DNA from: an uncultured cyanobacterium | GTDB lineage: Bacteria > Cyanobacteriota > Cyanobacteriia > Phormidesmidales > Phormidesmidaceae | NCBI GenBank assembly: GCA_963793265.1 | Contig: CAWBZI010000002.1 | Location: 32,001-96,000, forward strand | Length of the DNA stretch: 64,000 bases | Direction: 5' to 3' | In this document: piece by piece, positions 34,678 through 55,231 of the stretch | Numbering within the stretch: the first letter of the stretch is position 1 | How the letters are laid out: every line of letters starts with the position of its first letter | Position numbers and translations under genes: made by a program | Notes under the pieces: model-generated | Databases searched by the model: none | What the model saw: the letters and a program-made list of their open reading frames with translations, nothing else | Told to the model about the DNA's origin: nothing

Positions 34678-34722
34678 GGCTTTAGATGGTTTCTAAATAC
34701 TGTTGGTTTTGAGCCTGTGCTG

Positions 34723-35079
34723 CTACGCGGCGGCTGATTTGCAGTCCAGAATCTGAGCAAGCTGCGTTTCTAACTCGCCCGATTCGATCACGCCGGAGGC
34801 GACGACAATTCTCTCTAAAGCCGTTAGCCAGCACTGATAATAGTCCCATTCCGGGTCATTTAATTCGTGCGTATCTTCCCACTCTTTGATAGTGGCCATT
34901 AGAGTTTGGCGAAAGTCTTCCCATTCGTAATAGCCTTGTTTAGAGAGCGAGATCGCCACTCCAAAGGCCATTTTTTCCCACGCTCTGTCAAACTGCAAGT
35001 GACCGTCCTGACGCGGCGGCGCTTCTTCAGGTGAGCCCATCAAGCTAGTTGCGGCAAAGTGCTCGAACTTAGTAAACAT
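34723..35079 (-). CDS. Nitrile hydratase accessory (activator) protein
   Basis: PPR..G.L.F...WE..AFG.A, WEDFRQ.L, YYQCWLTALER; follows nthA. Confidence 0.9.
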   Translation of the reverse strand: MFTKFEHFAATSLMGSPEEAPPRQDGHLQFDRAWEKMAFGVAISLSKQGYYEWEDFRQTLMATIKEWEDTHELNDPEWDYYQCWLTALERIVVASGVIESGELETQLAQILDCKSAAA

Positions 35080-35108
35080 ATTCTTAAAAAAACCTACTTC
35101 AGGATGTC

Positions 35109-35735
35109 CTATACTTTTACGACAGCTACGCCCATCATGGCCTCGGGCGTTATCAGCGCTGCTAAGTCTGCTTCACTCATGCCATCTGTTCCTTCTGGGC
35201 GCATCGGCAGCACCCACCAGCGAATCTGAGCGCTGGTATCCCAAATCCGAATTTCAACAGAATCGTCTAGCTTTACGCCAAATTCCGAGAGCACCACGCG
35301 CGGTTCTCTGGCAACCCGCGCCCTAAACGTCGGATCTTTAAACCAGTAGGGTGGCAGTCCTAGCGTAGGCCAAGGGTAGCAAGAACACAGGGTACATACA
35401 ATTACGTTGTGCACCGCTGGCGTGTTTTCAGCAATCCGCATGTGCTCGCCTTCTGCCCCTGACATGCCGTTTGGAAAGCCCAATTCCTCGCAGGCCGCAT
35501 TGCAGTCGGCAAGCAAACGCGCCTTAAAATCAGGATCTACCCAGGCTTTAGCGACGAGCTTAGCACCGTTAAATGGCCCCATTTTGGTTTCAAAGTGGCT
35601 CAGCACGGTGTCAACCGTCTTGCCTGTAAGAATGCCTTTTTCAATTAGCAAAGACTCTAGAGCTTTTACCTTTGCCTCGCTGGTTTTCTCGCGGTCTGCT
35701 GCTGGATACTTAAATCCAGGATAGTTACTGGGCAT
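35109..35735 (-). CDS. nthA: Nitrile hydratase alpha subunit, cobalt type
   Basis: VCTLCSCYPW metal motif (Thr/Tyr indicates Co-type), GAKLVAKAWVDP, LGLPP.W.K. Confidence 0.95.
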   Translation of the reverse strand: MPSNYPGFKYPAADREKTSEAKVKALESLLIEKGILTGKTVDTVLSHFETKMGPFNGAKLVAKAWVDPDFKARLLADCNAACEELGFPNGMSGAEGEHMRIAENTPAVHNVIVCTLCSCYPWPTLGLPPYWFKDPTFRARVAREPRVVLSEFGVKLDDSVEIRIWDTSAQIRWWVLPMRPEGTDGMSEADLAALITPEAMMGVAVVKV

Positions 35736-35748
35736 AAGATTCTCTCTC

Positions 35749-36483
35749 CTAAAGCGCTTCTATGTACACTTCAAAAATGTCGTTGTAATAGACCATGTTC
35801 GAATCGGTCACTGTTTCCTCCCAAATATCTGTCGCCTTAATTGCGACGCTGTAAACGGGCATTGGCTCGCCCAAGCCATCTGTTGTGGGAAAAAAGTACG
35901 TGAATGCACCGTCGTATACTTTGACAATTTCGGCAACTTTGCCTCTGATGTGTCCGGGCAATCGGGTGTGTTCGCCTGAAGCGACGTTTTTGATTCTGAC
36001 GCGATCGCCTACTCCAAACTTAGGCTCACTATCCAAAGGCCGCTGCGGCGAATCCCCTTTCTCTAGGTACTTCACAATCTGCTCGTCGATAGCGCTCGCT
36101 TCTTTGTCTACTTGAACCTCGCTGCCCGAGAGATACGCCGCAGTCCTCTCATCTAGCTCAGCCTGCGTCATATAGCCTTCTCCGACAAAAAAGCCAGAAA
36201 TACCGCCCAGCCACTTTTCATAGTAGCGCAGCCGAAAGTACTCAAAAGGGTGCATTCCCTCAGCGCCCATGCGCAAGTGCCCCCAAGTCCAGAAGCTTTT
36301 GAACTCAGTAGGCACCTCATCAATTTTGTAGTCAGGAATGGAGTTGTCGAGATGGTTGCTGAGCGCCATCATCGCCGTATGAATGCCGAAAATGCGCTCT
36401 TCCCAAGGCTCAACAAACACTCTAGTTTCAAAGTTAACAGGATCGAGATTTTCTATACCCCCGATGTTGTGCTGTATTTTCAT
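35749..36483 (-). CDS. nthB: Nitrile hydratase beta subunit
   Basis: F.EPWE.R.F, R.GAE, YYEKWL, F.VGDRVR, HTRLPG.IRGK. Confidence 0.93.
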   Translation of the reverse strand: MKIQHNIGGIENLDPVNFETRVFVEPWEERIFGIHTAMMALSNHLDNSIPDYKIDEVPTEFKSFWTWGHLRMGAEGMHPFEYFRLRYYEKWLGGISGFFVGEGYMTQAELDERTAAYLSGSEVQVDKEASAIDEQIVKYLEKGDSPQRPLDSEPKFGVGDRVRIKNVASGEHTRLPGHIRGKVAEIVKVYDGAFTYFFPTTDGLGEPMPVYSVAIKATDIWEETVTDSNMVYYNDIFEVYIEAL

Positions 36484-36519
36484 AGTTCTTTTGGTATTGA
36501 AAGAGAGAATTGATTTTTT

Positions 36520-36549
36520 GTAGGGTGCATAGCAGTGCTATGCCCCTAC
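36520..36549. repeat. GTAG-type REP-like palindrome
   Basis: GTAGGGTGCATAGCAGTGCTATGCCCCTAC; same family as 63694-63774. Confidence 0.7.
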
Positions 36550-36592
36550 TCCGATATATTCTAGGTAAGGTTGTTCATTGTTGTTAGAATCT

Positions 36593-37573
36593 CTAAGCGT
36601 ATTCCAAAGCCTTTGCAAAGCAGCTCTGGAAACCTCTACGTAGCTCTGTTTCATCCAGATTTCGGCCAATAAATATCAGCTCATTCTGCCGAGCCTCACC
36701 TACTTTCCAAGGTTTTCCAGGCCGACCGTCTAGGGTCATATGCACCCCTTGAAACACAAATCGCCGGGGTTCATTGTCAGCATCTACGATGCCTTTCATT
36801 CGGAATATATCAGCGCCTTTTGCCTGCACTAGCTGGTAGAGCCAGCGGTTGAGCCGATCGCTATCTACCGAGCCCGCTTCTGTGATGGCAACAGAATGAA
36901 TAGTGCTGTCGTGGTCGTGCGCGTCTTCGTTGAGCAGCTCTGGATCGATGCTAAGCGCCTGCTGTAGATCGAAGGCTCCAACGCCGAGGATCTTATCTAA
37001 CGCAATGTTGCAGTTTTGCGTAGGGTGAATGGTAGAGATCGCATTCAGTCCTCTTACTTTCAAAGCCAGCGCCGCCAGCCGATCCGAGGAAATTAAATCT
37101 ATCTTGTTTAACAAAACAACATCGGCAAAAGCAATCTGCTCCTGCGCCTCACTGCTTCCCCAATGCGCGTCAATGTATTTAGCATCTATCACCGTAACCA
37201 CCGCATCTAGCTGCGTTTGCTTGGCCATTACCTCATCGACAAAAAATGACTGAATCACCGGAGCCGGATCGGCGAGGCCCGTCGTTTCAATCACGAGATG
37301 ATCGAAGCGATCGCCTCTGGCTATTAAATCGCTAATAATCCGAATCAGATCGCCCCTCACGGTACAGCAAATGCAGCCATTGTTCATTTCAAAAATCTCT
37401 TCATCGGCATCAATCACCAGTTGATGGTCGATGCCTACTTCTCCAAATTCATTGACAATCACCGCAATCTTTTTACCGTGTTCTTCAGTTAAGATGCGAT
37501 TTAATAGTGTTGTTTTGCCTGCTCCTAAGTATCCGGTGAGCACTGTAACCGGAATCTTTTGAGTCAATGCCAT
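36593..37573 (-). CDS. COG0523/CobW-family metallochaperone GTPase
   Basis: [37 protein letters not shown]...FQGVH. Confidence 0.93.
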
Positions 37574-37628
37574 AGTAATACCCTTCTTTATTCGTAACAG
37601 ATTTTAAAGCGACAGTTTATAGCCCCTG

Positions 37629-38138
37629 TTAAACGCCGGGCGAAACTGACGTAGTGGTCATGGCCTTTCCCCAGGCTTCTGAGAGGTAGCCAAAAATAGC
37701 GCCCAGGATCATAGCTGCGATCGCAATCAAAATAGGATTATTCGGCAGCGCTGCGGTCACCGGCAAACCCGTCACCGCGACCGTTCCAACCGTCTGCGAA
37801 AACCCCCACACAATTGCAGGCGTAATACCATGAGTGAAAGGCAGCTTTGAGGCCTGAACCATCGCTGCGCTGCCGATGCCAACGCAAATAGCTGCAACTA
37901 TCGGACTGCTGCCAATTAAATCTATTGCCAGTAAAGATAGCGCGGCGATGACGATGCCTGTAATATTGCAGGCAACCGACTTGACGAAGCCTCGCTTACC
38001 CCCACCCACAACAAAGAAAGAAGCCCAAGCGGTAAACGTCACCCAGACCGGGACAAGAATAACGGTGGCCGTTAGCAAAACATCGACGCCACCTAGCACA
38101 CCAATACTAACGGTTAGAGCCTCAGATTGTTTCATCAC
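37629..38138 (-). CDS. DUF1097-like membrane protein
   Basis: PVWVTFTAWASFFVVGG, TPAIVWGF, GAIFGYLSE; all hydrophobic. Confidence 0.75.
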   Translation of the reverse strand: MMKQSEALTVSIGVLGGVDVLLTATVILVPVWVTFTAWASFFVVGGGKRGFVKSVACNITGIVIAALSLLAIDLIGSSPIVAAICVGIGSAAMVQASKLPFTHGITPAIVWGFSQTVGTVAVTGLPVTAALPNNPILIAIAAMILGAIFGYLSEAWGKAMTTTSVSPGV

Positions 38139-38394
38139 ACAGTTCCTTTTGTAGTTCCCTTTAATAGTCTCTTCGGAATTTTACTGGAAAGTTTTGCCTG
38201 AGAATAAAGACTTTCCTTACTGTTATGCACGACTTTATCACTCTTTCAAACAGAAAACAGTCTCTTTCAACACATTCTGTTTACTCAAGCCGTTACTCGG
38301 CTAGGGTTCAATACTATCTCTACAAAGTCCGATAAAAGAAATATATGAGTCAAATTAAAATCGCTATCTGTGAAACCACCTTAAGATAGATATC

Positions 38395-38410
38395 TGTATA
38401 TCTACTTACA
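38395..38410. promoter_or_regulatory. NtcA-binding site (perfect consensus)
   Basis: TGTA-TATCTACT-TACA = GTA-N8-TAC, in the divergent intergenic region. Confidence 0.75.
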
Positions 38411-38467: not shown

Positions 38468-40069
38468 ATGAAACCAATTGTGATATCGCGTTATTCCTGG
38501 CTAAGAAGAGTTTCTATTGCCTGCGCGCTAACGCTTTCTACTACATTTGTTGCCAGTTGCTCTGGGCCGTCTTCAGTCTCAGAAGTCAGTACGACATCGG
38601 GCGAGACTGCTAGCGCTGAGTCTTTAGATGGCGAAACTATTCGTATCTCTATCGGAACTCAAGACCAAGTTATCAATACCGCTGTAGGCGGTGCCACTGT
38701 TAGAGAGTTAGATTTGTTAGAAAAGTATCTGCCTACAACCGGCAAATATGAGGGCGTGAAGTACGATATTGAGTGGTCTAGCTATACGTCCGGGCCACCT
38801 ATTACTAATAAAATGCTGGCCAACCAGATTGATATTGGCTTGATGGGAGACTTTCCTGCCGTTATCAATCTAATCAAGTTTCAAGAGGAAGTAGAAGGCG
38901 TCACCTCAACTTTTATTGGCACGCTAGCCTACAGTCCTAACGGTGCTGGGAACGCGGTAGTCGTTCCGAAAGATAGCGAAGTCACTTCTTTAGCCGATTT
39001 GAAAGGGGGGGCGGTATCAGTTCCCTTTGGTTCTGCCGCGCACGGCATGGTGCTAAAGGCGCTTACTGACGCAGGGATTGATCCAGAAACCGATGTAGAG
39101 CTAATTAGCCAAGCCCCAGAAGTAGGCGGCACTAGCCTTCGCACGGGGCAAATCGATGCCCATGCCGATTTTGTTCCCTTTGGCGAACTATTTCCATATA
39201 GAGGCTTTGCTAAAAAGATTTTTGACGGTGCACAAACTGGCGTGCCTACTCTACACGGAATTGTTGTTCGCTCCGACTTTAGCGAGAAATATCCAGAGAT
39301 TGTAGAAGCTTATCTCCAGGCGATGCTTGAAGCCAATCAGATGTTTCGAGATAATCCAGAAGAGATCTCTGCCCAAATTGAGGAGTGGTCTGGGATTGAG
39401 AAAGAAGTGGTGTACATGTTTTTAGGCCCTTCTGGTTTGCAGCCAATTAACCCTAGCATTGAGGAGGTTCAACTGTCGGCTCTAAAAAACAGTATTGCTA
39501 CGCTTATTAGCCTTGGGAAAATTGAATCGCCTGTCGATCCAGAGGATGTTACAGGATGGGTAGATGACGGCTTCTTAAAAGCTGCGATGGAAAACTCGGG
39601 GTTAGACTACGATGCAGTCATTGAAGAAGGTGAAAGCTATTTCATTACCGGACAAGATGCGCTGACAGGAGATGACATTGCAGAACCCAAGATGGCCGCT
39701 CAGCTATGGATTCAAGAAGAACCTACGGTGAGTAATTTTGCCTCTGTCCCTAACATGGTGACAAAGCTGAATGAGCTACAGGATGAGGGCAAAGCCGCCG
39801 ACGTGATTTTTGTACATGATCGTAACAAAGGATGGAAGCTGTTTGCGGAAAACGCTTACTATGTCACCAGCGGCGATGAGGTTTCTGCCTTTTTGCTAGA
39901 AGCTGACGCTACCGCGTTTGCATCTGAGTCTGGCGGGCAAGTTGTCTCTTTTAAGGATTTGCTCAAAACATACTCTGTTAGCGGCCCTCAGCCATCGCGC
40001 GTTAGTCGCATTACAGCAGATAACTTGCGACAGGCACTAAAGAAGGTCGTTCCTGCGCTGGCAGGATAG
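38468..40069 (+). CDS. NitT/TauT (SsuA-like) ABC substrate-binding lipoprotein with a C-terminal extension
   Basis: Lipobox VASC; TSGPP, DIGLMGDFP, VPFGSAAH. Confidence 0.88.
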   Translation: MKPIVISRYSWLRRVSIACALTLSTTFVASCSGPSSVSEVSTTSGETASAESLDGETIRISIGTQDQVINTAVGGATVRELDLLEKYLPTTGKYEGVKYDIEWSSYTSGPPITNKMLANQIDIGLMGDFPAVINLIKFQEEVEGVTSTFIGTLAYSPNGAGNAVVVPKDSEVTSLADLKGGAVSVPFGSAAHGMVLKALTDAGIDPETDVELISQAPEVGGTSLRTGQIDAHADFVPFGELFPYRGFAKKIFDGAQTGVPTLHGIVVRSDFSEKYPEIVEAYLQAMLEANQMFRDNPEEISAQIEEWSGIEKEVVYMFLGPSGLQPINPSIEEVQLSALKNSIATLISLGKIESPVDPEDVTGWVDDGFLKAAMENSGLDYDAVIEEGESYFITGQDALTGDDIAEPKMAAQLWIQEEPTVSNFASVPNMVTKLNELQDEGKAADVIFVHDRNKGWKLFAENAYYVTSGDEVSAFLLEADATAFASESGGQVVSFKDLLKTYSVSGPQPSRVSRITADNLRQALKKVVPALAG

Positions 40070-40248: not shown

Positions 40249-41133
40249 ATGACAAACATCATCCCTACCAGCGGCGATGGCGAAATTACTCCCGTAGACT
40301 ATCGCGCGACTACCCAAAAACCCTCTAGGCTACTTCGCTTTCTACCAGCCAACTTATCTTCAAACCGCCCTGCCATGCGGCTATTGTCATTGGTTCTCTT
40401 TTTTGGCATCTGGCAATTTTTGTGCGTTATTGGCTTCGATTTCTTTATAAACTTTCAGCTAGTTCCCTCTCCAATGGAAGTTTCTAAAGCTACAGTTGAT
40501 TTTTTTCTAGACGCTCCGGGCGTACACATTCGCTCTAGTATTGTTCGGGTGCTAGCAGGTTTTGTCTTTGCCTCGGCCTTTGGTATTGTGATGGGAATGT
40601 TTATCGGCTGGTTTCAGCTAGCTGAAGACCTGATGATGCCTTGGCTAGAGCTGCTAAGACCGATTCCAGCAGTCGCGTGGATTCCGCTGGCAATTTTAAT
40701 CTTTCCAACTGCTGAAACGGGGATGATTTATATCACTTTTATCGGCGCGTTTTTTCCAGTTTTAATTAGCACCATTCGCGCGGTTGAAAACATCCTGCAT
40801 GACGTTGTGTTAATTCGCGTAGGCCAGTGCTTAGGTGCTAAACAATGGCATATATTTAAAGACATCGTGATACCGGGTTCGTTACCAGGTATTGCAGGCG
40901 GCTTAACTATTGGCATGGGAAATGCCTGGTTTTGCCTAGTTACCGCTGAGATTTTGGCAGGGCGATATGGCGTGGGCTACATCACTTGGGAGTCGTATGT
41001 AACCTCTAACTATCCGCCGATTGTGATGGGCATGTTATTGATTGGTCTGATGGGCGCGTTTAGCGCATGGGCAGTTGAGCGCGGAATGCAGGCCCTGATG
41101 CCTTGGCGAGTGATTAAAAAACAGAATGCGTAG
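40249..41133 (+). CDS. NitT/TauT ABC permease
   Basis: LRPIPAVAWIPLAI, LVTAE, GVGY. Confidence 0.92.
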   Translation: MTNIIPTSGDGEITPVDYRATTQKPSRLLRFLPANLSSNRPAMRLLSLVLFFGIWQFLCVIGFDFFINFQLVPSPMEVSKATVDFFLDAPGVHIRSSIVRVLAGFVFASAFGIVMGMFIGWFQLAEDLMMPWLELLRPIPAVAWIPLAILIFPTAETGMIYITFIGAFFPVLISTIRAVENILHDVVLIRVGQCLGAKQWHIFKDIVIPGSLPGIAGGLTIGMGNAWFCLVTAEILAGRYGVGYITWESYVTSNYPPIVMGMLLIGLMGAFSAWAVERGMQALMPWRVIKKQNA

Positions 41134-41226
41134 GTTAGGTTGAGCCCCAACCATCAACAGCCGTGCCCCGCCATCCCACCCGCGCGAAACCTAACATCTA
41201 TCAACACAACCGCAGGAGCGATCGCA

Positions 41227-42051
41227 ATGATTCAAAAAACACCTCCTAAGTTAAAAGCACCTGTAGAGCCAACTAAAGGCTCTGTGCAGGTAGAAGGGGT
41301 TTCGATGATCTTTGGGAAAAAAGGCCGAACAGCTCAGGTGCTAGACTCCGTTAATTTTCAAGTGAAGCCGGGTGAGTTTGTTTGTCTTTTGGGGCCTTCA
41401 GGCTGCGGAAAATCGACGCTGCTCAATATTATCGCTGGCTTTATCAAACCCTCAGCGGGCTATGTAATGGTAGATCGAAATCAGGTAGTCAAGCCAGGTG
41501 CGGATAGAGGTTTCGTTTTTCAGCAATACTCACTGCTGCCTTGGAAAACAACGTTTCAAAATGTGGAACTAGGTCTTAGAATCAAAGGAATGCCGAAGGC
41601 TGAACGAGAGGATATAGTCGGCGAATATTTAAACCTAGTTGGGCTAGGCAAGCATCGCGATGCGTATCCAGCGCAGCTCTCTGGCGGGATGAAACAGCGG
41701 GCAAGTATTGTTCGCGCATTGGTTAATTCGCCATCGGTGTTGCTGATGGATGAACCGTTTGCCGCGCTAGACGCGCAGACCCGACAGATGATGCAAGAAC
41801 TGCTGTTAAATATCTGGGAAACGCTGAAGACGACGATTGTATTTGTTACTCACGATATTGAAGAAGCGGTGTTTTTAGGCGATCGCATCTTCGTTATGGG
41901 CGTACAGCCAGGGCGCATCAAAGCCGAGATACCCATCTCTTTGAAACGGCCTCGCCATGTTGATGATATGCTTGCGCCAGAATTTACTCAGCTAAATCGG
42001 CAGGTCTTCAGTCTGATTCGAGAAGAAACGCTCAAAAGCATGGAGATATAA
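41227..42051 (+). CDS. NitT/TauT ABC ATPase
   Basis: GPSGCGKST, LSGGMKQR, LMDEPFAALD, VTHD; GCAGGAG RBS before 41227. Confidence 0.93.
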   Translation: MIQKTPPKLKAPVEPTKGSVQVEGVSMIFGKKGRTAQVLDSVNFQVKPGEFVCLLGPSGCGKSTLLNIIAGFIKPSAGYVMVDRNQVVKPGADRGFVFQQYSLLPWKTTFQNVELGLRIKGMPKAEREDIVGEYLNLVGLGKHRDAYPAQLSGGMKQRASIVRALVNSPSVLLMDEPFAALDAQTRQMMQELLLNIWETLKTTIVFVTHDIEEAVFLGDRIFVMGVQPGRIKAEIPISLKRPRHVDDMLAPEFTQLNRQVFSLIREETLKSMEI

Positions 42052-42133: not shown

Positions 42134-44242
42134 CTACAGCGCAGACAAAGCCCTTTCCAAAAGCTCCGGCTGTATCCAGGTATCTAAGTTCAATTCACCT
42201 AACGCCTCGTTGCCTGCAATGGCTGAAAGCTGCTCGATATGCTCTGCAACCCAGTCCGTACGGATTTGGGTATCTGGGAAAAATAAACCTGTGCTATCCG
42301 AGCGCTGATGCGCCAGAGTTTTTATAACAATCTCGGGAGCGATTCCTGCCCAAGTACTCACCAAAGAAAGCGCGCTTGGCGTTGTCTCGTACCAATACTG
42401 TGCCGCTATGAGCGCCTTTAGGTAGGCAGTTACTAGCTCAGGGTGTTCCTCAGCTAGCGCTTCTCTGACCACAACGCCGTGGAACGTCGGCAGTCTATCG
42501 GCGTCACCCTCTAGCAAGCGCCGAAACTGTCCCTTATGGCTAGCGATATCGTGCAGCGGTGCAAAATATGCATAGCCATCGGCTTGTGGGTTGCGTGGCG
42601 TTAGCCGATGAATACTCAGATTATCAATAGAGGTAAGTGTCACCTCTGGCAGTAGATCTGCCCGCGCTAGCGATCGCATAATCATGCCGTGAGCCGCAGA
42701 GGCGAAAGGCACAGCGATTATCCGGTCGCGCAGGTCATCCCAACTCACCAGTGAAGAGCGATTGGGCACAATCACCGTATTCCCGGCACCGTCGGGGTTA
42801 CTAGCAATAAAGCTAACTAGCCGAGTTTTGGTCAGGTGCGTTTTTGACTGAGACAATTCTGTAGAGAAACTTTGTGAGTCTGTTGCTGAAGGCAGACCGC
42901 TGAGTAGTAGAGGATAGTCTCCCAATATGCCAATATCTAGCTGGTCAGACTGTAGCCCAGCGACAATGGGTGCTCCCGATGTAAAGTCGCGCCACTGAAC
43001 CTGATATTCAGCGCCCTGATATCGCCCACACCGAGGTAGAAAGTGTTCGAGCAGCCCTAAATGTTGAATGATTAAGCCTGCCGTTACCGTTTGAATGGTT
43101 CTATTTTGGGTGCCGATTGCGATCCTTAGCGTTTCAGATTTACGCTCGTCAGATCCGATATGCCTATGGTATGAGGTCTTAGAATGTACGGATGTCTGCC
43201 AGCGAACAGGTAGCTTAGGCGCTATCTGGGGGATCAAACCAGATTTTTTACCCTTGGTTGGAGAAGTTAATTTTTGACGGCGGCTGTATCCTGTTCTCTC
43301 GTAGACGAGCTGAACGAACTGCTGTAATGGTTTTTGAAAGCTACGCGTTTGAGACTGATAGTCGCGTTTGCCCTGTTGCTGGGGGTGCAGCATAAACAGC
43401 TCAAAATTCAGCGGGAATTCTTGTAGCGAAATTGCGGTGAGTATTTTGGCTTTTCGCTCCATCTGAAACTGGAAGCTAGATGCAAATCCCAGATAGTGCC
43501 CCTGACTGAGGAAGGTACTCATCAAACTAGGAGATTGTACAATCTCGCGGTTGGGAAAATCGGATAGCTGCAAACCCAGTTCGCTGAGCCGACTGGCTAG
43601 CACCATCGAGTCCGGCGTGGAAGCTTCTGGCAGTGCCCAAACTTCCTCAGTCAGTTCTCGCAGGCTTAACCACTCGCGAGTAGCCAACCGATGATCGGCT
43701 GCTACTACTAAAGAGTACTGAAAGCTATCAACCGGAATAGCCTCTATTGCTTCAAAGTCTTTTGTGTTATCCGAAAAGATATTTTCTGTAGCAAGCGATT
43801 CAGAGAAAGCAGCGTCAATATCGCCTGCTGCAACTGCCTGATAGATGTCTTGCACTGTTCTAAATGACACGCATTGCAAATTAACCTCAGGATACTTCTG
43901 CCGGTAGGCAAATACAATTTTGGGCAACCATCCGCTGGCAATATTTGGCGTACAGCCAATCTTTAGCTGGTTAAACTTCCTTTGTTTTATGGCTTCAATT
44001 TCTTTAGTTAGACGGCATTCTAAATCAATCAAACTAGGCCCAGCATTTAGCAAATAGTTTCCTGCTGCCGTAAGCTCTATTTTGCGACCAAGGCGGTTAA
44101 ACAAATCGGTTGATAGGCTTACCTCTAAAGACTTTATCTTAGCGCTGACTGCGGGCTGAGTCAGGCTGAGTTCGTCAGCAGCTTCTGTAAAGCTAAGCCG
44201 ACGAGCTACTGCTAAAAAAACCCTGAGCTGGTAGATTTCCAT
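42134..44242 (-). CDS. LysR-family regulator fused to a C-terminal SsuA-like binding domain
   Basis: N-terminal LysR HTH (SFTEAADELSLTQPAVS) and effector domain, then ~330 aa paralogous to the 38468 binding protein. Confidence 0.88.
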   Translation of the reverse strand: MEIYQLRVFLAVARRLSFTEAADELSLTQPAVSAKIKSLEVSLSTDLFNRLGRKIELTAAGNYLLNAGPSLIDLECRLTKEIEAIKQRKFNQLKIGCTPNIASGWLPKIVFAYRQKYPEVNLQCVSFRTVQDIYQAVAAGDIDAAFSESLATENIFSDNTKDFEAIEAIPVDSFQYSLVVAADHRLATREWLSLRELTEEVWALPEASTPDSMVLASRLSELGLQLSDFPNREIVQSPSLMSTFLSQGHYLGFASSFQFQMERKAKILTAISLQEFPLNFELFMLHPQQQGKRDYQSQTRSFQKPLQQFVQLVYERTGYSRRQKLTSPTKGKKSGLIPQIAPKLPVRWQTSVHSKTSYHRHIGSDERKSETLRIAIGTQNRTIQTVTAGLIIQHLGLLEHFLPRCGRYQGAEYQVQWRDFTSGAPIVAGLQSDQLDIGILGDYPLLLSGLPSATDSQSFSTELSQSKTHLTKTRLVSFIASNPDGAGNTVIVPNRSSLVSWDDLRDRIIAVPFASAAHGMIMRSLARADLLPEVTLTSIDNLSIHRLTPRNPQADGYAYFAPLHDIASHKGQFRRLLEGDADRLPTFHGVVVREALAEEHPELVTAYLKALIAAQYWYETTPSALSLVSTWAGIAPEIVIKTLAHQRSDSTGLFFPDTQIRTDWVAEHIEQLSAIAGNEALGELNLDTWIQPELLERALSAL

Positions 44243-44488
44243 GGCGTGATCGCGAGCATTACAGCAACGCTTTAAGGGAACCTAAACAAACTGTAAACTG
44301 GCTTGAGATTGACTCACAAATAAGCCTCTACTTTGTCGGGAAAACAAAGCTTTTACTTATCAACATGCTTTGATAAAAATGGCTTGCCAATGATAGTCAC
44401 TTCAGCAGCCTATAGCTTCCACTGCTGTAAAAACTAGACTTGCTATTATCTGTTTTTATGAGTGTATAAGATAGATTGATTGCTAAAC

Positions 44489-44504
44489 TGTGCGTTTTGA
44501 TACA
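44489..44504. promoter_or_regulatory. NtcA-like site (GTG variant)
   Basis: TGTG-CGTTTTGA-TACA = GTG-N8-TAC, between the LysR and flavoprotein genes. Confidence 0.5.
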
Positions 44505-44774: not shown

Positions 44775-46478
44775 GTGAATATTCAGCATCTACAAACAGA
44801 TTTTTTGGTGATTGGCGGCGGTACCGCAGGTACGATGGCTGGCATTAAAGCCAAGCAGGCTAATCCCGAGGCAGACGTGCTGATTCTAGAGAAAGCGAAC
44901 ATTCGCCGGAGTGGCGCGATCGCAATGGGTATGGACGGGGTTAACACCGCTGTTATTCCTGGTAACTCTACTCCTGAGCAGTACGTTCGAGAAATTACCA
45001 TCGCCAATGACGGCATTCTCAATCAAAAGTCGGTTTATCAAACCGGACGCTGGGGCTTTGAGGTGATTCAAGAGCTAGAAAGCTGGGGCGTAAAGTTTCA
45101 AAAAGACCGCGAAGGTAATTACGATCTTAAGCAGGTACACCGCGTAGGTAAGTATGTGCTTCCTATGCCCGAAGGCAAGGATCTCAAAAAGATTCTTGCT
45201 CGCCAGGTAAAACGCCATAAAGTGAGCGTTACCAACCGCGTTATGGCCACTCGCGTCATGGTAAAAGAGGGTCGCGCTATTGGAGCTGTCGGCTTTGACA
45301 CGCGCAAAGGAGACTTTGTGGTGATTCAAGCTAAGGCGGTAGTGCTCTGCACCGGAGCCTGTGGAAGACTGGGCCTACCCGCTTCAGGCTATCTGTATGG
45401 CACCTATGAGAACCCTACCAACGCGGGCGATGGCTACTCTATGGCTTACCACGCAGGAGCCGAACTCACAAATATTGAATGCTTCCAAATTAACCCCTTA
45501 ATTAAAGACTACAACGGCCCAGCCTGCGCCTACGTTGCTAGCCCCTTTGGAGCCTACACCGCTAATGCCGAGGGCAACCGCTTCATTAACTGCGACTATT
45601 GGAGCGGTCAAATGATGCTGGAAACCTGGAAAGAATTAAACTCAGGCAAAGGGCCGGTACACCTCAAGATGTATCATCTAGACGACGATACCATCTCAGA
45701 GATTGAGCGGGTATTGTGGGCTAACGAACGGCCTAGCCGCGAGCGGTTCCACGAAGGCCGAAAGCAGGACTATCGAAAACATGGCGTCGAGATGAATATC
45801 TCGGAGATCGGGCTTTGCAGCGGTCATAGTGCCTCCGGGGTTTGGGTAAATGAGAGGGCAGAAACAACAATACCCGGTCTGTATGCCGCTGGCGATATGG
45901 CCAGCGTACCGCATAACTATATGATTGGAGCCTTTGTCTCTGGGCGACTTTCAGGCATCAACGCCATGGACTACATTCAGACACTAGAGCATGTAGAGCC
46001 CGATGAGGATTTCCTTGCTGCGGAGAAAGCTCGCATTTACGCACCGCTGAGTCGCCCGGACGGGGTTCCACACACTCAGGTGGAATATAAGCTGCGTCGC
46101 TATGTGAATGACTATCTTCAGCCGCCAAAGTCTCCTACCAATATGGATATTGGTCTGGCTGCTTTTGAGAACTATCATGAAAGCTTAGACATGATGGGTG
46201 CAACAGACCCGCACGAGCTGATGCGCTGCATGGAAGTTCACTTTATTCGTGACTGCGCGGAGATGGCTGCTAGGGCTTCTCTTTACCGAAAAGAGAGCAG
46301 ATGGGGCCTGTATCACTATCGACTAGACTATCCTGAAAAGAATGATGAGGAGTGGTTTTGTCATGCGAACTTGAAGAAGAGCGCAACAGGCAATATGGAA
46401 ATGTTTAAGCGGGCAGTGGAGCCTTATATTGTGGACGTAAATATGGAGCAGGAGGTTTACGATGTGGCGGTAAGGTAA
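44775..46478 (+). CDS. Fumarate reductase/SDH-superfamily flavoprotein, AprA-like
   Basis: GGGTAG FAD motif, RSGAIAMG..VN, TNAGDG, GLYAAGD, RKESRWGLYHYRLDYP. Confidence 0.88.
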   Translation: MNIQHLQTDFLVIGGGTAGTMAGIKAKQANPEADVLILEKANIRRSGAIAMGMDGVNTAVIPGNSTPEQYVREITIANDGILNQKSVYQTGRWGFEVIQELESWGVKFQKDREGNYDLKQVHRVGKYVLPMPEGKDLKKILARQVKRHKVSVTNRVMATRVMVKEGRAIGAVGFDTRKGDFVVIQAKAVVLCTGACGRLGLPASGYLYGTYENPTNAGDGYSMAYHAGAELTNIECFQINPLIKDYNGPACAYVASPFGAYTANAEGNRFINCDYWSGQMMLETWKELNSGKGPVHLKMYHLDDDTISEIERVLWANERPSRERFHEGRKQDYRKHGVEMNISEIGLCSGHSASGVWVNERAETTIPGLYAAGDMASVPHNYMIGAFVSGRLSGINAMDYIQTLEHVEPDEDFLAAEKARIYAPLSRPDGVPHTQVEYKLRRYVNDYLQPPKSPTNMDIGLAAFENYHESLDMMGATDPHELMRCMEVHFIRDCAEMAARASLYRKESRWGLYHYRLDYPEKNDEEWFCHANLKKSATGNMEMFKRAVEPYIVDVNMEQEVYDVAVR

Positions 46479-46575: not shown

Positions 46576-46803
46576 ATGGCCTTAGCAACTCAGCGCGTCG
46601 ATGTTCCCGTTATTGTAGACGAATCTAAATGTCTTGAAAAATGCGTTGCCTGCATTGAGGTATGCCCGCTTGACGTCTTAGTGAAGAATCCAGAAACCGG
46701 CAAAGCCTACATGAAATACGACGAATGTTGGTTCTGCCTTCCTTGCGAAAAAGAATGTCCTACCAATGCCATCACCGTTCAAATTCCGTTTCTGTTGCGC
46801 TAA
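46576..46803 (+). CDS. 2x[4Fe-4S] ferredoxin, AprB-like
   Basis: CLEKCVACIEVCP and CWFCLPCEKECP. Confidence 0.92.
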   Translation: MALATQRVDVPVIVDESKCLEKCVACIEVCPLDVLVKNPETGKAYMKYDECWFCLPCEKECPTNAITVQIPFLLR

Positions 46804-46818
46804 GGAAAAGCTTCGACC

Positions 46819-47808
46819 ATGACTACAGATATCACTACCAGTCTCGATCCTGAAGTCGCGCAGTGGGTAGATATGTTGAGATCACAAGACCTCAGCGATC
46901 GCCTCGTTGCTGCTAAAGCGCTTCAGCACATGGGTGACGAGGACACCATTAACGCTCTTATTGATGTTCTTGATGATGAGAGCCCTGCGGTACAAGAAAT
47001 TGCTATTACAGCTCTATGGGAGATGGCAAACCCAGTTGTGGTCAAACCTTTGCTGAAATGCCTGGGCTCGGATCGCGAAGAAGCCGTCAGAGGAGAAGCA
47101 CTCTCTGCGCTAAAAGAGATTATCTCCCCAGACGATCTGCTCACGCTACTAGACGCAATTCATATAGACGATGAACAGATGCAGCTTAATGTGCTGATTC
47201 TACTACGAAAAATTCACGACGCCCAAGCACTTGCCTATGTTCTACCGTTCTTTAAGTCGGATAGTTCCGCCCTCAGAGAAGCGTCAATAGTCACCCTACG
47301 CTATCTTAATCAGGTCGTGCGCTGCGAGCCTGCTCTAGCGCTGACCAAAGACCCAGTTGAACAGGTTCGTCGTTCGGCAATGCTGACACTTGGCCACTTA
47401 ACCGACGATGCGGTAGTGCCTCTACTTTGCGAAGCGGCAACTGCTGATTTTGACTGGCAAGTGCGCCGTAACGCGGCCCAAGCTTTGGATCTTCACCACA
47501 CAACAGCCGCCCTGCCCGCGCTTATTAAGGCTATGGGAGACGAACATTGGCAGGTTCGTAAGTTTGCGGCTCGCGCCTTGCAAGCTGTTGCGAACCAGAC
47601 TGCCATACCCTGCATGATTAAAGCCCTTTCAGATGAATATTCTGATGTTCGGAAAGAAGCTGCGATCGCACTCGGAAAAATCGGCCATTCTGACGCCCTA
47701 CCCGCCCTACAGCAAACGCTAGACGACCCTGATAGGGACGTGCAAATCTTCTCTGGGCGCGCCATCCAATCTATTCAGAAGCAGCTAGCGGAAGTGCCCA
47801 ATGCCTAA
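46819..47808 (+). CDS. HEAT/PBS-lyase repeat protein
   Basis: Repeated D...VR..AA.ALG.I units. Confidence 0.9.
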   Translation: MTTDITTSLDPEVAQWVDMLRSQDLSDRLVAAKALQHMGDEDTINALIDVLDDESPAVQEIAITALWEMANPVVVKPLLKCLGSDREEAVRGEALSALKEIISPDDLLTLLDAIHIDDEQMQLNVLILLRKIHDAQALAYVLPFFKSDSSALREASIVTLRYLNQVVRCEPALALTKDPVEQVRRSAMLTLGHLTDDAVVPLLCEAATADFDWQVRRNAAQALDLHHTTAALPALIKAMGDEHWQVRKFAARALQAVANQTAIPCMIKALSDEYSDVRKEAAIALGKIGHSDALPALQQTLDDPDRDVQIFSGRAIQSIQKQLAEVPNA

Positions 47809-48904
47809 TCATCCCTCTCCTTTGGTTTCTAACACCTATTCAGTGCCCGACGCTGCACCTGAAAATCTTGCTATAGAAGCCAGAAAACAACAGGTGACGG
47901 CGTACCTTAGAAAAGTCATTGAACCCACGCTTAACAACAATATTGTCGAACTGGGTATGGTTCGCAATCTACGCGTGACTGATGACTACGTTTATCTGAA
48001 ATTATATATTGGGGCTCATCAACACTTTCTTCAAGATGAAGCCCAGCGGGTTTTAGACAATCTGAGCTGGTGTAAGAAAGCCTATATTCAGCTTTGCACA
48101 ATTCCGGGCGTGCGCACAACGCTGGCCATTTCTAGCGGTAAAGGCGGCGTAGGCAAATCTACAACGGCGGTGAACCTGGCCGCTGCACTGACTAAAGCCG
48201 GAGCAAAAGTGGGCGTTCTAGATGCGGATATCTATGGCCCTAATGTCCCTCAGATGCTGGGATTAGGCCATGCCGAGGTAGAAGTTGTAGAGACAGCCCA
48301 AGGAAAAAGGTTTAAGCCGTTGGAGGCTCATGGTATCAAGGTGATGTCGGTGGGTTTGCTAGCCGGGCCTGACCACCCGCTGGCTTGGCGAGGGCCTGTG
48401 TTGCATAAAATTATCACACAGTTTATTCAAGAGGTGGATTGGGGGGAGCTAGATTATCTTTTAATTGATCTGCCGCCAGGGACAGGCGATGCTCAAATCA
48501 CAATTATTCAAGAGAGTCCTATATGCGGGGTGGTGATGGTGACAACGCCGCAGCAGGTTGCGGTATCTGACGTGCGGCGCAGCATTTATATGTTCCATCA
48601 GGTAGGGGTACCCGTGTTAGGAATGGTAGAGAATATGAGCTATTTAATCTGTGAATGCTGTGGCGATCGCACGTCTATTTTTGGCGAGGGCGGCGGCGAG
48701 CAGATAGCCAAAGAGCTGTCTGTTCCACTCTTGGGAAAAGTGCCAATCGACTCCAAAATTTGTCAGGGCGGTGATGATGGAAAACCGCTTCCGCTAGTAG
48801 ACGAAGCGGCACCGCTTTCCGTTGTCTTTGGCGCGATCGCCGCAGGCATCAATCAAACCTTTACGCCTAGCCTATTAAACCTGTCGTCTACGGCATCAGG
48901 CTAG
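47801..48904 (+). CDS. Mrp/ApbC Fe-S cluster carrier ATPase with N-terminal DUF59-like domain
   Basis: SGKGGVGKST, DADIYGP, WRGP, DLPPGTGD, ENMS..CECC. Confidence 0.92.
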   Translation: MPNHPSPLVSNTYSVPDAAPENLAIEARKQQVTAYLRKVIEPTLNNNIVELGMVRNLRVTDDYVYLKLYIGAHQHFLQDEAQRVLDNLSWCKKAYIQLCTIPGVRTTLAISSGKGGVGKSTTAVNLAAALTKAGAKVGVLDADIYGPNVPQMLGLGHAEVEVVETAQGKRFKPLEAHGIKVMSVGLLAGPDHPLAWRGPVLHKIITQFIQEVDWGELDYLLIDLPPGTGDAQITIIQESPICGVVMVTTPQQVAVSDVRRSIYMFHQVGVPVLGMVENMSYLICECCGDRTSIFGEGGGEQIAKELSVPLLGKVPIDSKICQGGDDGKPLPLVDEAAPLSVVFGAIAAGINQTFTPSLLNLSSTASG

Positions 48905-48946: not shown

Positions 48947-49963
48947 GTGCTACAGAGAATGAAGTCTTCAGGAGAATCTGAATTTAATTTAGCGATTCAA
49001 AAAGCGTTGCATCGTTCGGTAACAATACACTTCACGCTCCAACAAGTGCTATTTTTGAGCATTGCAAGCTGCTCCCTAACGCCTTGGGTTTCACCGCCCA
49101 TCGCTCTAACATCAGGAATGGGAGTGGCCTTGACCATTCAGAATCCTTTCCTGCACACCAGCCGATGGCTCGCTCGCCAGCTTTTACAGCTCTGCGTTAT
49201 CCTGCTCGGCTTTGGCATGGATTTAGCGATTGTGCTGCAAGCAGGTCAAACGGGCGCTACATTTGCGGCAATCAGTATTGGCATGACGTTAGCAATAGGG
49301 TACTGGCTTGGAGCGTGGCTCAAAATCCCAGTGAAGATTTCTATCTTAATTTCGGCAGGCACAGCAATCTGTGGCGGTTCTGCGATCGCAGCAGTCGCGA
49401 CCGTCGTTGGTGCGGCAGAGCAAGAGATTTCGATCGCAATAGGCACCGTTTTCTTACTCAATGCCGCAGCGCTCTACATTTTTCCGCTGCTGGGGCACGG
49501 TTTGCATCTATCTCCAGACCAGTTTGGTATTTGGGCAGGCATTGCTATTCACGATATTTCTAGCGTTGTCGGTGCTGCGTCGTATTTTGATACAGCGTCG
49601 TTGGATATCGCAACGGCGGTTAAACTCTCTCGGACGCTCTGGATTGTTCCTATCTCGCTCATTTTTTCATTTCTGTTTCAGCGCCAGCAGACTCGACGCA
49701 CAAGAGTACGTATCCCCTGGTTTATTGGTTTATTTCTATTGGCATCGCTCGCAAGGACGTTTGTGCCGAACGTCGTAAACTGGTCGCCTGCGCTAACGCA
49801 ATTTTCAGAAGCTGGATTGAAGCTGACATTATTTTTGATTGGAACAGGACTATCGCTACAGGCACTAAAGGCAGTGGGTTGGCGGCCCATTGCTCAAGGA
49901 ATAGTGCTATGGGTTGTTATCAGTATTAGCTCTCTTGGCACGATTTTGCAGTTAGTCCGCTGA
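48947..49963 (+). CDS. YeiH/putative sulfate exporter (PSE) family
   Basis: GTAICGGSAIAA, WAGIAIHDISSVVGA, VKLSRTLWIVP. Confidence 0.9.
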   Translation: MLQRMKSSGESEFNLAIQKALHRSVTIHFTLQQVLFLSIASCSLTPWVSPPIALTSGMGVALTIQNPFLHTSRWLARQLLQLCVILLGFGMDLAIVLQAGQTGATFAAISIGMTLAIGYWLGAWLKIPVKISILISAGTAICGGSAIAAVATVVGAAEQEISIAIGTVFLLNAAALYIFPLLGHGLHLSPDQFGIWAGIAIHDISSVVGAASYFDTASLDIATAVKLSRTLWIVPISLIFSFLFQRQQTRRTRVRIPWFIGLFLLASLARTFVPNVVNWSPALTQFSEAGLKLTLFLIGTGLSLQALKAVGWRPIAQGIVLWVVISISSLGTILQLVR

Positions 49964-50123: not shown

Positions 50124-50849
50124 ATGTCCACAGAATTAATTATTGTTTTGACCGTGGGCGTCGCTTCTTTTGTTCGAGGCGTTACTGGCTTCGGAGCCGC
50201 GCTAATTGCTATGCCGATTGTCTCTGGACTTACCGGCGTTTACACGGCGGCTCCTCTTATGGCAATCATTGGCCTGACTAACGATACGTTGCTATGTCTT
50301 TACTACCGACGTTCTTTTAACTGGGGCATCGTCGCCCATCTATGGATAGGGTCAGCTTTAGGTATCCCTGTTGGTTTTTTGATATTACGGGTTTTCCCAG
50401 GCGACTCTATGCTTTCAGCACTAGGTATTGTGATAGCGGCCTATGCTATCTATGCTTTGTTTGATCCGGTAATGCCTATTTTGAAGTCACGTCAGTGGGT
50501 ATATGCCACTGGTTTTTTGTGCGGTGCTTTGGGCAGCAGCTATAACTTACCAGGGCCACCGGTTATTTTGTATGGCAACAGCCAGCGATGGAGCCAGGAC
50601 AAGTTTAAAAGCAATCTTAGTATTTTCTTTTTGGGAAATGCTGTTTTGGTCGTGTTGGGCCATGTTGCTCAAGATAGGTTTTCTAGCGCTATTTTGCACC
50701 AATATATTATTGCAGTCCCCAGCATAGCGATTGGGCTATTTTCAGGTATTGTCCTCTCAAAATTTTTTAATCCGGTGCTATTTAGGAAAGTTGTCTTAGT
50801 GCTTCTAGTTGCAATCGGCATTCAACTGTTTCTTATAGAGCCCATTTAG
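50124..50849 (+). CDS. TauE/SafE sulfite/sulfonate exporter family
   Basis: FVRGVTGFGAALIAMP, GIPVG, PGPPV; about 8 TM segments. Confidence 0.88.
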   Translation: MSTELIIVLTVGVASFVRGVTGFGAALIAMPIVSGLTGVYTAAPLMAIIGLTNDTLLCLYYRRSFNWGIVAHLWIGSALGIPVGFLILRVFPGDSMLSALGIVIAAYAIYALFDPVMPILKSRQWVYATGFLCGALGSSYNLPGPPVILYGNSQRWSQDKFKSNLSIFFLGNAVLVVLGHVAQDRFSSAILHQYIIAVPSIAIGLFSGIVLSKFFNPVLFRKVVLVLLVAIGIQLFLIEPI

Positions 50850-51113: not shown

Positions 51114-52013
51114 CTACGCTGCCGATGACTGGGCGGCTGATGACTGGGACAACCGCTGACTAATTTCGTTGATGCGAATTGTTTGCTGAAAGATCAGCGG
51201 CAGAGCATATATTCCTTCAGCGAATTCAAAAACGTAGGACAGCACAGCAAAGATGCCACCGGGTGTAGCGTTTTTGCCAGAGGCTGAGACAAACAAAGAG
51301 AACATTACCAACGCAAACAATAGCAGCTCGCTGAGTCCGAAGTTAACCGCTTCTAAGTTTGACAATTGAATACGGTGACCGGCTAGTCGCTGGAAATGAT
51401 TGAGAATCGTAGCGCTGGAGCCGGTTTCTATTACGCTAATCTGTTGCTCTAGCTCGTCATTGAGGTCGCGATTGAAGCGAAACGTCAGACGCTCGCTTTT
51501 TTGAAAGATGAAATAGACGCAGATCGCTGCTGATAAGCAGCCTGCGAATAAATAGCCGTTGTAAACCAACAGCATCAGTACCGCACCGATAACGCTAACA
51601 AACGCAGTAAAGCCTTGAGTGAGATGAACTTCAAAGAAGTCTATGAGTTCTTTGACGAGGCTGCTGCGCACGGAGATCGCAGATATCGGCGCGTTCAAAG
51701 CCGTCTGACGTTGAATCATATCAACCGCTGTCGCACTGTAGATTTTTGAATAGATACGGGTGTCGTATAGCCGTCGTCCAAATGATAGCAACAGCTTGGA
51801 GACATATAAAACAACTATCCAAATAGTCCCCCGCAGCGACTGCTCCAATAGATCGTTGATTGCCAAACCAAACGCGAACGGCTGCAAAACATTGAGCGCA
51901 TTTTCAATGAGTAATAGCCAAAAGGTTAACAGGAGTTGGCCTCGGAACCGTCGGAACATCTGTGCGAGGGAAAAAGGTGAGTTTTGAGAGGAACGGCTGC
52001 GGTCATTGAGCAT
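51114..52013 (-). CDS. Stand-alone ABC six-transmembrane-domain protein
   Basis: PFAFGLAINDLL, RRLYDTRIY, ELIDFFE; the ATG at 52013 overlaps the devA stop. Confidence 0.8.
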   Translation of the reverse strand: MLNDRSRSSQNSPFSLAQMFRRFRGQLLLTFWLLLIENALNVLQPFAFGLAINDLLEQSLRGTIWIVVLYVSKLLLSFGRRLYDTRIYSKIYSATAVDMIQRQTALNAPISAISVRSSLVKELIDFFEVHLTQGFTAFVSVIGAVLMLLVYNGYLFAGCLSAAICVYFIFQKSERLTFRFNRDLNDELEQQISVIETGSSATILNHFQRLAGHRIQLSNLEAVNFGLSELLLFALVMFSLFVSASGKNATPGGIFAVLSYVFEFAEGIYALPLIFQQTIRINEISQRLSQSSAAQSSAA

Positions 52014-52752: not shown

Positions 52753-52789
52753 AGTAAATTCAATCTGGAGTGTAGATTAGATTGATTCA

Positions 52790-55140: not shown

Positions 55141-55150
55141 ACATACAAAG

Positions 55151-55195
55151 TGCGAACGTTCGTTCTCATAATAACATAAGGAGATGGATTGTCAA
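55151..55195 (-). promoter_or_regulatory. devBCA promoter with TetR-type operator
   Basis: Minus-strand TTGACA-N16-TATTAT adjoining the palindrome TGCGAACG-TT-CGTTCTCA. Confidence 0.6.
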
Positions 55196-55231
55196 GCGCT
55201 ATGTTAGATTTACTCCCTGCCCAAGTGTTTT

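Follow-up and report, generated by a model that had tools for sequence, protein, structure and literature searches.

Intracellular sensors with a binding-protein fold, LysR-type transcriptional regulators (LTTRs) and co-activation by NtcA and a LysR protein all have precedents. NasS is a separate cytoplasmic NrtA-like sensor protein that controls gene expression through an RNA antiterminator (NasS/NasT). The C-terminal domains of NrtC and CmpC are described as cytoplasmic paralogues of the periplasmic binding protein of their own system, about 30% identical to it and of the same fold, which sit on an ATP-binding cassette (ABC) ATPase and control transport via PII (PMC10945777; PDB entries 9uai and 8wm7), and the NtcA–NtcB complex is reported to use an NtcA box preceded by two LysR half-boxes (bioRxiv 2022.10.10.511513). 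A window of 64,000 nucleotides (the whole stretch of DNA analysed) from an uncultured cyanobacterium of the family Phormidesmidaceae (assembly GCA_963793265.1, contig CAWBZI010000002.1, positions 32,001 to 96,000) encodes a LysR protein of 702 amino acids with an additional C-terminal domain related to the substrate-binding lipoprotein of the adjacent importer. No account of an LTTR whose third domain was taken over from its importer was found in the literature searched, although databases annotate the architecture automatically; new here is a predicted tandem LysR box followed by an NtcA box, common to the promoters of the enzyme and of the transporter. With a probability of about 0.55, the regulator binds the compound taken up by the importer via the fused domain and, as an NtcB-like co-activator together with NtcA, switches on the importer and the flavoprotein operon.

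Sensor and DNA-binding LysR protein form one polypeptide in this regulator, in contrast to the separate NasS; the sensor is carried by a transcription factor, in contrast to NrtC and CmpC, and its pocket is of the SsuA type rather than the nitrate type. The two sulfonate-binding glycines of SsuA and TauA, and probably the glutamine, are kept in a domain without a signal peptide. NtcB at the Anabaena nirA promoter, as far as it is described in the source cited above, is likewise a LysR protein whose two tandem AT-N11-AT half-boxes precede an NtcA box at a nutrient uptake/reduction operon, but its box reads ATGC-N7-GCAT with a 7-bp gap, compared with ATA/ATT-N9-TAT and a 6-bp gap here. Unlike NtcB, moreover, the regulator has 702 amino acids with an extra binding domain and lies outside the nir cluster, the likeness being one of working mode only. 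In its parts list the locus also resembles the sulfonate-linked AsfRABC system of Pseudomonas putida S-313, described as a LysR protein, a flavoprotein reductase, a ferredoxin and a binding protein (PMC4267179, PMC2864759), the LysR protein not being reported there as fused. A literature search thin on subscription papers returned nothing published about this regulator, nor about a sulfamate reductase, and the accessible text of Dore et al. 2023 (PMC10119275), supplements included, does not describe the cluster.

A LysR protein with an appended binding-protein domain

The regulator gene and its parts are as follows.

42134..44242, minus strand: fused regulator gene, an open reading frame (ORF) of 702 amino acids
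44060..44230, minus strand: LysR helix-turn-helix (HTH), residues 5-61 (Pfam HTH_1)
43373..43972, minus strand: LysR effector-binding/oligomerisation domain, residues 91-290 (Pfam LysR_substrate; fold matches)
43139..43291, minus strand: variable linker, residues 318-368, predicted to be disordered (model confidence, substitution rates and length variation)
42137..43138, minus strand: appended SsuA/TauA-fold domain, residues 369-702 (BLASTP, fold model and pocket mapping)

The ORF, the Pfam matches and the alignment bear out a preliminary description of this gene as a complete LysR protein followed by a binding domain. HTH_1 (E = 1.8e-20; 73.1 bits against a cut-off of 26.6) and LysR_substrate (E = 6.7e-24; 84.9 bits against 28) account for the N-terminal half, and NMT1_2 passes its cut-off at residues 506-623 (E = 3.3e-6). 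Residues 369-639 align by BLASTP with residues 55-315 of the lipoprotein encoded from position 38468 (34% identity, E = 3e-59), and the six motif pairs quoted in that description all occur in both translations. The N-terminus is the HTH and the highest 19-residue hydropathy is 1.36, leaving no signal peptide, as had been claimed; the lipoprotein, by contrast, has a lipobox at C31, and its NosL-like C-terminal domain is missing from the regulator.

Modelled alone from a 106-row alignment, the appended domain is folded over residues 369-702 with a mean predicted local distance difference test score (pLDDT) of 89 and a predicted template modelling score (pTM) of 0.90. The model and the fold searches place it in the class II binding-protein fold, with SsuA (3KSJ/3KSX) and TauA (6SSY) as the best solved matches (Foldseek E = 2e-19, TM 0.70; VIA Z 27.9, root-mean-square deviation 3.0 over 281 aligned residues) and the regulatory domains of CmpC/NrtC ranking just behind (VIA Z 25.7). 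The SsuA family cut-off TIGR01728 is not reached (62.9 bits compared with 163.5). The N-terminal half of the full-length model is LTTR-like, its top fold matches being CcmR, BenM, TsaR and other LTTRs, and the linker has pLDDT below 50 over residues 323-366 and measures 16-57 residues across homologues.

The fusion is widely conserved. A scan of GTDB gave 187 related stretches, and in the best 80 of these (77 titled as cyanobacteria and three as uncultured bacteria) HTH and appended domain share one stop-free frame at 79 loci, the 80th beginning at a contig edge. This choice of loci favours full-length fusions and the related loci are not independent, which counts against the weight of the figure, and the whole-genome searches therefore carry more weight: the regulator and its cognate binding protein have identical distributions, in 12 of 41 relatives, one of them with the pair split across two contig ends, and in five of 401 genomes sampled across the phylum, with at most five candidates scored per genome. 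A protein search restricted to 386-1229 residues gave 376 matches, and all of the 120 listed carry HTH_1 and LysR_substrate at a query coverage of 87-100%. Since 83 of 84 extracted fusions have 637-702 residues (the remaining one is truncated, at 566), the usual LysR size of about 300 residues and two domains is not fitted. The Atlas lists two cyanobacterial clusters of this architecture under automatic names.

It could be argued that two adjacent genes were joined by loss of a stop codon or by an assembly error, and the low-complexity, variable linker between the halves is what such a junction might look like. The single ORF in 79 of the 80 loci, and in four of five marine loci, speaks against this; the search among proteins shorter than 386 residues yielded 16 matches to the appended domain, partial or on short contigs and none demonstrably a stand-alone gene; and neither a membrane helix nor a remnant of a signal or lipobox in the linker was found in the 84 fusions, where no hydropathy value exceeds 1.9. 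Conservation of the single ORF rules out the artefact, the chance of which is negligible, and, to judge from these sequences, the fusion is real and old. Two separate genes as the normal state, which the preliminary description had named as grounds for rejecting its proposal, are not what the homologues show.

Proteins whose names give Synechococcus sp. BIOS-E4-1 and Cyanobium sp. NAT70 as their source belong to a diverged branch of the regulator. Five marine metagenome loci of 30-45% G+C content have this cluster too, several genes being frameshifted at one of them; the 30% locus probably belongs to Prochlorococcus. One member of the low-G+C marine branch bears the label Candidatus Pelagibacter sp. 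TMED64, and its contig was probably mis-binned. Synechococcus sp. PCC 7335 is a further strain with the cluster. The whole cluster also occurs on plasmids of Leptolyngbya sp. BL0902 (NZ_CP046158.1:60891-73508) and Pseudanabaena with IS1 adjoining, a location that fits its patchy distribution.

Pocket, origin and selection of the appended domain

In the accessible reports, the sulfonate is held by Gln36, Gly68, Gly86 and Ser141 in X. citri SsuA, where Trp185 faces the pocket (PMC3839906), and by Gln30, Gly61, Gly79 and Thr132 in TauA, where Glu106 and Asp205 contact the amine (PMC6906117). HMMER alignments map Gly68, Gly86, Ser141 and Trp185 of SsuA to G423, G441, A516 and F560 of the regulator, and Glu106 and Asp205 of TauA to N488 and H588; by motif, Q379 would correspond to Gln36 of SsuA. 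The pocket residues of the appended domain are thus listed as Q379, G423, G441, D442, N488, S515, H518, F560 and H588. Seven of them (Q379, G423, G441, D442, S515, H518 and F560) are invariant in all 79 fusions and are the same residues in the lipoproteins; indeed, lipoprotein and fused domain have the same or a similar residue at every mapped site. The acid equivalent to Glu106 of TauA is replaced by asparagine (N488 in 77 of 79 fusions) and that equivalent to Asp205 by histidine or tyrosine at position 588, and the lipoproteins show the same replacements. Taurine is an unlikely ligand, the equivalents of both TauA residues being absent. On the evidence of these alignments, the pocket appears to be of the sulfonate type and intact.

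What the domain has lost lies elsewhere. Of 56 columns that near and far true binding proteins alike conserve, the fused domain keeps only 29, and the lost ones cluster in QAPEVG (215-224), D253-G254 and E313-G323 of the lipoprotein, patches that may have formed the permease-docking surface. The fused domain also has conserved residues of its own in its C-terminal third, D663, W664, H668, W689 and Q691, which are absent from the lipoprotein. These residues would suit a module that serves structure or docking, with PII, the ATPase of the transporter or the enzyme as possible partners, like the C-terminal domain of NrtC, with the true effector bound in the native LysR pocket; the purifying selection on the effector domain (see below) is compatible with such an arrangement, and the C-terminal regulatory domain of NrtC is reported to work through contacts with PII, its nitrate site being dispensable (PMC10945777). 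Against it stand the cleft residues, unchanged in 79 of 79 fusions, and the retention of Q379, G441, D442, S515 and F560 in all four picocyanobacterial copies, whose effector domain is just 18% identical. A docking module is quite improbable, and sensing of the imported compound by the appended domain is preferred.

All fused domains form one clade with a support of 100 in both of the trees calculated. In the careful tree of 39 rows, which omitted five long outgroup rows, one long far row and most near-duplicates, this clade is nested within the cognate binding-protein family, and its sister group consists of cyanobacterial lipoproteins and three other sequences (88/82, not starred). The nesting suggests that the appended domain arose long ago as a paralogue within this transporter family. 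The proposal that it is a copy of the binding domain of the neighbouring transporter therefore stands as regards family, cytoplasmic location and conservation, and falls as regards the donor: a recent duplication of the 38468 neighbour is ruled out by the 34% identity and the long stem branch.

The ratio of nonsynonymous to synonymous substitution rates (dN/dS), pooled over 26 disjoint pairs, is 0.031 for the HTH, 0.086 for the effector domain, 0.274 for the linker and 0.077 for the appended domain, values which indicate that the latter is under purifying selection. Mean identity among the 79 fusions is 80% for the HTH, 52% for the effector domain and 61% for the appended domain; 28% of the columns of the appended domain are conserved at 95% or more, compared with 12% for the effector domain, and identity to the marine picocyanobacterial copies is 27-30% for the appended domain compared with the 18% of the effector domain. 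Recruitment of a binding domain, as first proposed, is in keeping with the single clade inside the binding-protein family, the low dN/dS and the intact pocket. That the protein integrates two signals gains no direct support: its effector domain is conserved but diverges more quickly than the appended domain. At the sequence level, the second input to be seen is NtcA at the target promoters.

Predicted operators and the operons behind them

Four predicted regulatory sites precede the two operons.

44445..44480, plus strand: tandem AT-N11-AT LysR-type box, predicted operator, between the regulator and flavoprotein genes
44490..44503, plus strand: NtcA-type box GTG-N8-TAC, one mismatch, 45 nt past the start of the LysR box
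38332..38367, plus strand: tandem AT-N11-AT LysR-type box, predicted operator, upstream of the transporter operon
38396..38409, plus strand: perfect NtcA box GTA-N8-TAC, 64 nt past the start of the LysR box

Phylogenetic footprinting of 62 non-redundant spacers between the regulator and flavoprotein genes gave two AT-N11-AT elements separated by a 6-bp gap, and 45 non-redundant regions upstream of the lipoprotein gene yielded a similar tandem element. The matrices from the two promoter sets agree in register with a score of 16.0 (shuffled mean 0.6, maximum 11.0), which none of 2000 column shuffles reached. The two sites of the window, both of them training sites, top the genome scan with 29.0 and 28.8; the next score is 19.9, and no further member of the regulon is clear in this genome. 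A regular expression for the tandem box fits 44 of the 62 enzyme promoters, the pattern having been written after they were viewed and so not being independent. Seven of seven held-out promoters of regulator-bearing loci score 18-33 (one has sequence in common with the training set), and six stretches upstream of flavoprotein genes without a LysR gene score -2 to 12. Neither the LysR box (maximum score 2.3) nor a strict NtcA box was found in the first-gene promoters of 13 regulator-less clusters, controls that represent few families and whose starts were placed by hand, which lessens their weight in favour of the proposed regulation. Judged by these sites, the regulator fits the LysR pattern of a divergent target with T-N11-A type sites.

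GTA-N8-TAC is the NtcA consensus (PMC3898017). An NtcA box is present in 44 of the 45 transporter promoters, 63-64 nt past the LysR box (shuffle mean 6.4, maximum 14), and in 32 of the 62 enzyme promoters, mostly 45 nt past it (shuffle mean 7.2, maximum 16). A conserved AT-rich hexamer resembling a -10 element lies 22-24 nt downstream of the NtcA box of the transporter promoter, and in the marine branch an NtcA box is found 62 nt before the lipoprotein start at two of three loci. A scan for sigma-70 promoters and terminators gave fewer matches than chance, and Rfam gave no match at gathering score over 28000-56000.

The genome has at least five further matches to the LysR HTH, and another LysR protein (NtcB, CmpR or CcmR) might own the boxes, or the fused regulator might act there only as a repressor. 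The box, however, tracks the presence of the fused regulator gene, and the nirA promoter of this genome, taken as a control, contains the published NtcB box instead, along with an NtcA box, and reaches a tandem-box score of 5.8. With a separate NtcB-like LysR gene near nirA, NtcB is not supported as the owner of the boxes, and this set of alternatives is very improbable.

The genes of the two operons and the exporter genes beyond them, all on the plus strand, are as follows.

38468..40069, plus strand: lipoprotein substrate-binding protein, SsuA/TauA-like with a NosL-like C-terminal domain
40249..41133, plus strand: NitT/TauT-type ABC permease
41140..42051, plus strand: ABC ATPase, 303 amino acids, separate and without a C-terminal regulatory domain
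44775..46478, plus strand: AprA-like flavoprotein of the PRK08275 family (NF006131, 999 bits against a cut-off of 587)
46576..46803, plus strand: ferredoxin, 75 amino acids, two Cys clusters, probably AprB-like
46819..47808, plus strand: HEAT-repeat protein
47801..48904, plus strand: Mrp/ApbC Fe-S carrier ATPase
48947..49963, plus strand: YeiH-family putative sulfate exporter (PF03601; TIGR00698 below cut-off)
50124..50849, plus strand: TauE/SafE sulfite exporter family protein (PF01925)

The regulator gene stands head-to-head with the PRK08275 flavoprotein gene at 74 of the 80 loci, followed by genes for the ferredoxin (71), the HEAT protein (66) and Mrp (65); the cognate lipoprotein gene is within reach at 48, many loci being cut short. 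The ferredoxin, 88-100% identical over all cyanobacterial loci, is the product of the most conserved gene of the cluster, and RefSeq names the protein at its position in the Leptolyngbya sp. BL0902 plasmid locus 'ferredoxin family protein'. The NosL-like domain of the lipoprotein (39686-39967, plus strand; residues 407-500) is also present in distant homologues, and a predicted protein of 779 residues joins HEAT repeats to the cognate binding protein, possibly as a read-through of two cluster genes.

The arginine of the R-x-KD motif has a catalytic role in AprA, and the flavoprotein has leucine in its place. It remains below the aprA cut-offs (TIGR02061, 183.8 against 641.75; PRK06854, 318 against 557), its nearest solved relatives being the alpha subunit of 3'-phosphoadenosine 5'-phosphosulfate (PAPS) reductase (8A8O; E = 3.5e-71) and adenosine 5'-phosphosulfate (APS) reductase. 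These reductases are described as acting by attack of N5 of flavin adenine dinucleotide (FAD) on sulfur (PMC10322725).

The flavoprotein is encoded in 24 of the 401 genomes of the phylum sample, and 13 of the 14 loci examined lack the regulator. At 11 of these 13 a ssuA-like gene lies just upstream, and all five of the products tested pass the SsuA cut-off; ssuD, NtaA/DmoA monooxygenase genes or metY are nearby at the regulator-less loci checked. Regulator-less modules of flavoprotein, ferredoxin, HEAT and Mrp genes are also found near metX, often with genes inserted between those for the flavoprotein and the ferredoxin. The regulator-less enzymes nest among the regulator-associated ones in the tree and are 79-85% identical to them. 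YeiH or TauE is encoded at 40 of the 80 regulator loci (26 of the 35 with at least 19 kb) and at none of the 13 regulator-less loci.

The regulator might instead sense a sulfur compound for scavenging or detoxification, in the manner of AsfR, or the product sulfite, with NtcA merely coupling the system to carbon/nitrogen status. The sulfonate-type pocket and the presence of the same enzyme among ssu genes of other cyanobacteria are what such a role would predict, and asfRABC of P. putida, with the same parts list, is reported to serve the use of aryl-sulfonate sulfur (PMC4267179). On the other hand, the sulfite and sulfate exporters go with the form that has the regulator, a form found as well in marine picocyanobacteria, whose surroundings would be rich in sulfate, and canonical NtcA boxes mark all but one of the transporter promoters. 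A sulfur-sensing role is unlikely, and a nitrogen-linked regulator of importer and enzyme is retained as the preferred reading.

Proteobacteria share the binding-protein, flavoprotein, ferredoxin and HEAT genes, the regulator there being of the GntR type on two of four plasmids and of the Crp/Fnr type on one, with none listed on the fourth. The neighbours of the cluster on contigs resembling marine Synechococcus are a TauA-like ABC system, an M20 hydrolase and an allophanate hydrolase behind its own NtcA box (locus L094:544-5190; also L095), with the start of a urease-like gene upstream; by their gene content, these flanks are a nitrogen-scavenging island. In the window, a cobalt-type nitrile hydratase cluster (34003-38138, minus strand: HupE/UreJ, activator, alpha, beta, CobW, DUF1097) runs away from the transporter operon, both having a 330-nt upstream region in common; nitrile hydratase was rejected as a core part of the cluster, being adjacent at just three of the 80 loci. 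Judged from their translations, an Opp/Nik-type ABC importer lies upstream of the nitrile hydratase genes (29333-32897, minus strand) and a DevBCA-type exporter with a TetR regulator lies downstream (52003-55831, minus strand).

Proposed mechanism and its implications

In the proposed mechanism, the fused regulator would bind the tandem boxes at both promoters, which NtcA would prime at low nitrogen. The imported substrate, a small anion of the sulfonate or sulfamate type, would close the appended clamp, and the closed clamp would dock on the LysR effector domains and pass on the signal, whereupon the tetramer on the tandem box might turn into a co-activator, by analogy with NtcB at nirA. Complex prediction of the appended domain on the effector-domain dimer scored 0.57, compared with 0.00 for the best control (runs 0.60, 0.18 and 0.57), with at least 27% of the contacts shared and a partner pLDDT of at least 81. 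In the calibration, scores of 0.60 or less were given by just 18 of 157 solved complexes and by both of the passing mismatches among 215, so that a pass at this level is more often wrong than right unless the complex is likely beforehand; the model hints faintly that the appended domain docks in this way.

Several observations weigh against this account. The full-length model has a pTM of 0.43 and its halves are not confidently placed relative to each other. The site of Ser141 of SsuA is occupied by alanine in 43 and by serine in 36 of the 79 fusions, and by alanine in 49 of 50 lipoproteins, and with alanine one hydrogen bond to the sulfonate would be missing. The quick tree of 75 rows, which carries a long-branch warning, places the fused clade beside, not inside, the cognate binding-protein family. 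The C-terminal domain of NrtC binds nitrate, yet uptake is reported to be unchanged in the nitrate-site mutant K484A (PMC10945777), and AsfRABC, as a precedent, is controlled by sulfur, being activated under sulfate limitation. The spacer between LysR and NtcA boxes is 9 and 27-28 bp here, compared with 15 bp for NtcB, and no LysR box was detected in the eight picocyanobacterial promoters scored (best 7.2). Neither a sigma-54 nor an NtrC motif was found in eight short upstream stretches of the four proteobacterial clusters. Finally, NtcA is reported to bind 2,424 regions in Anabaena, a small share of them at nitrogen-metabolism genes (PMC3898017), and with so wide a regulon the presence of an NtcA box is no proof of a nitrogen source.

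The occurrence of one enzyme in NtcA-controlled, exporter-linked clusters and in ssu-linked clusters suggests a substrate with both nitrogen and sulfur. It is tentatively proposed, at rather less than even odds, that the flavoprotein cleaves such a compound reductively at FAD N5, the ammonium being kept and the sulfite or sulfate exported by TauE/YeiH, with sulfamate as the simplest candidate. Sulfamate groups are reported to occur in nature (PMC5534208). The choice of sulfamate is a guess, cleavage of its N–S bond fitting the chemistry and a pocket free of the amine-binding acids. The widest version of the proposal is doubtful: LysR sensing would have moved to a captured copy of a binding protein, controlling an undescribed nitrogen route in which an AprAB-like enzyme splits an N–S compound such as sulfamate, with ammonium kept and sulfur exported; the route would reach marine Synechococcus and probably Prochlorococcus, and other cyanobacteria would reuse the enzyme for sulfur.

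If the preferred reading is true, fusion to a binding-protein domain would directly make a transcription factor exactly as specific as its importer, and the three-domain LysR protein would be suited to work on the way in which a fused clamp operates the tetramer of an LTTR. The locus also gives access to an orphan enzyme module that is widespread (PRK08275 flavoprotein, ferredoxin and HEAT protein), and two soluble proteins with matching pockets offer a route to ligand screening. From the NtcA boxes, the substrate is predicted to serve as a nitrogen source, perhaps one used by marine picocyanobacteria.

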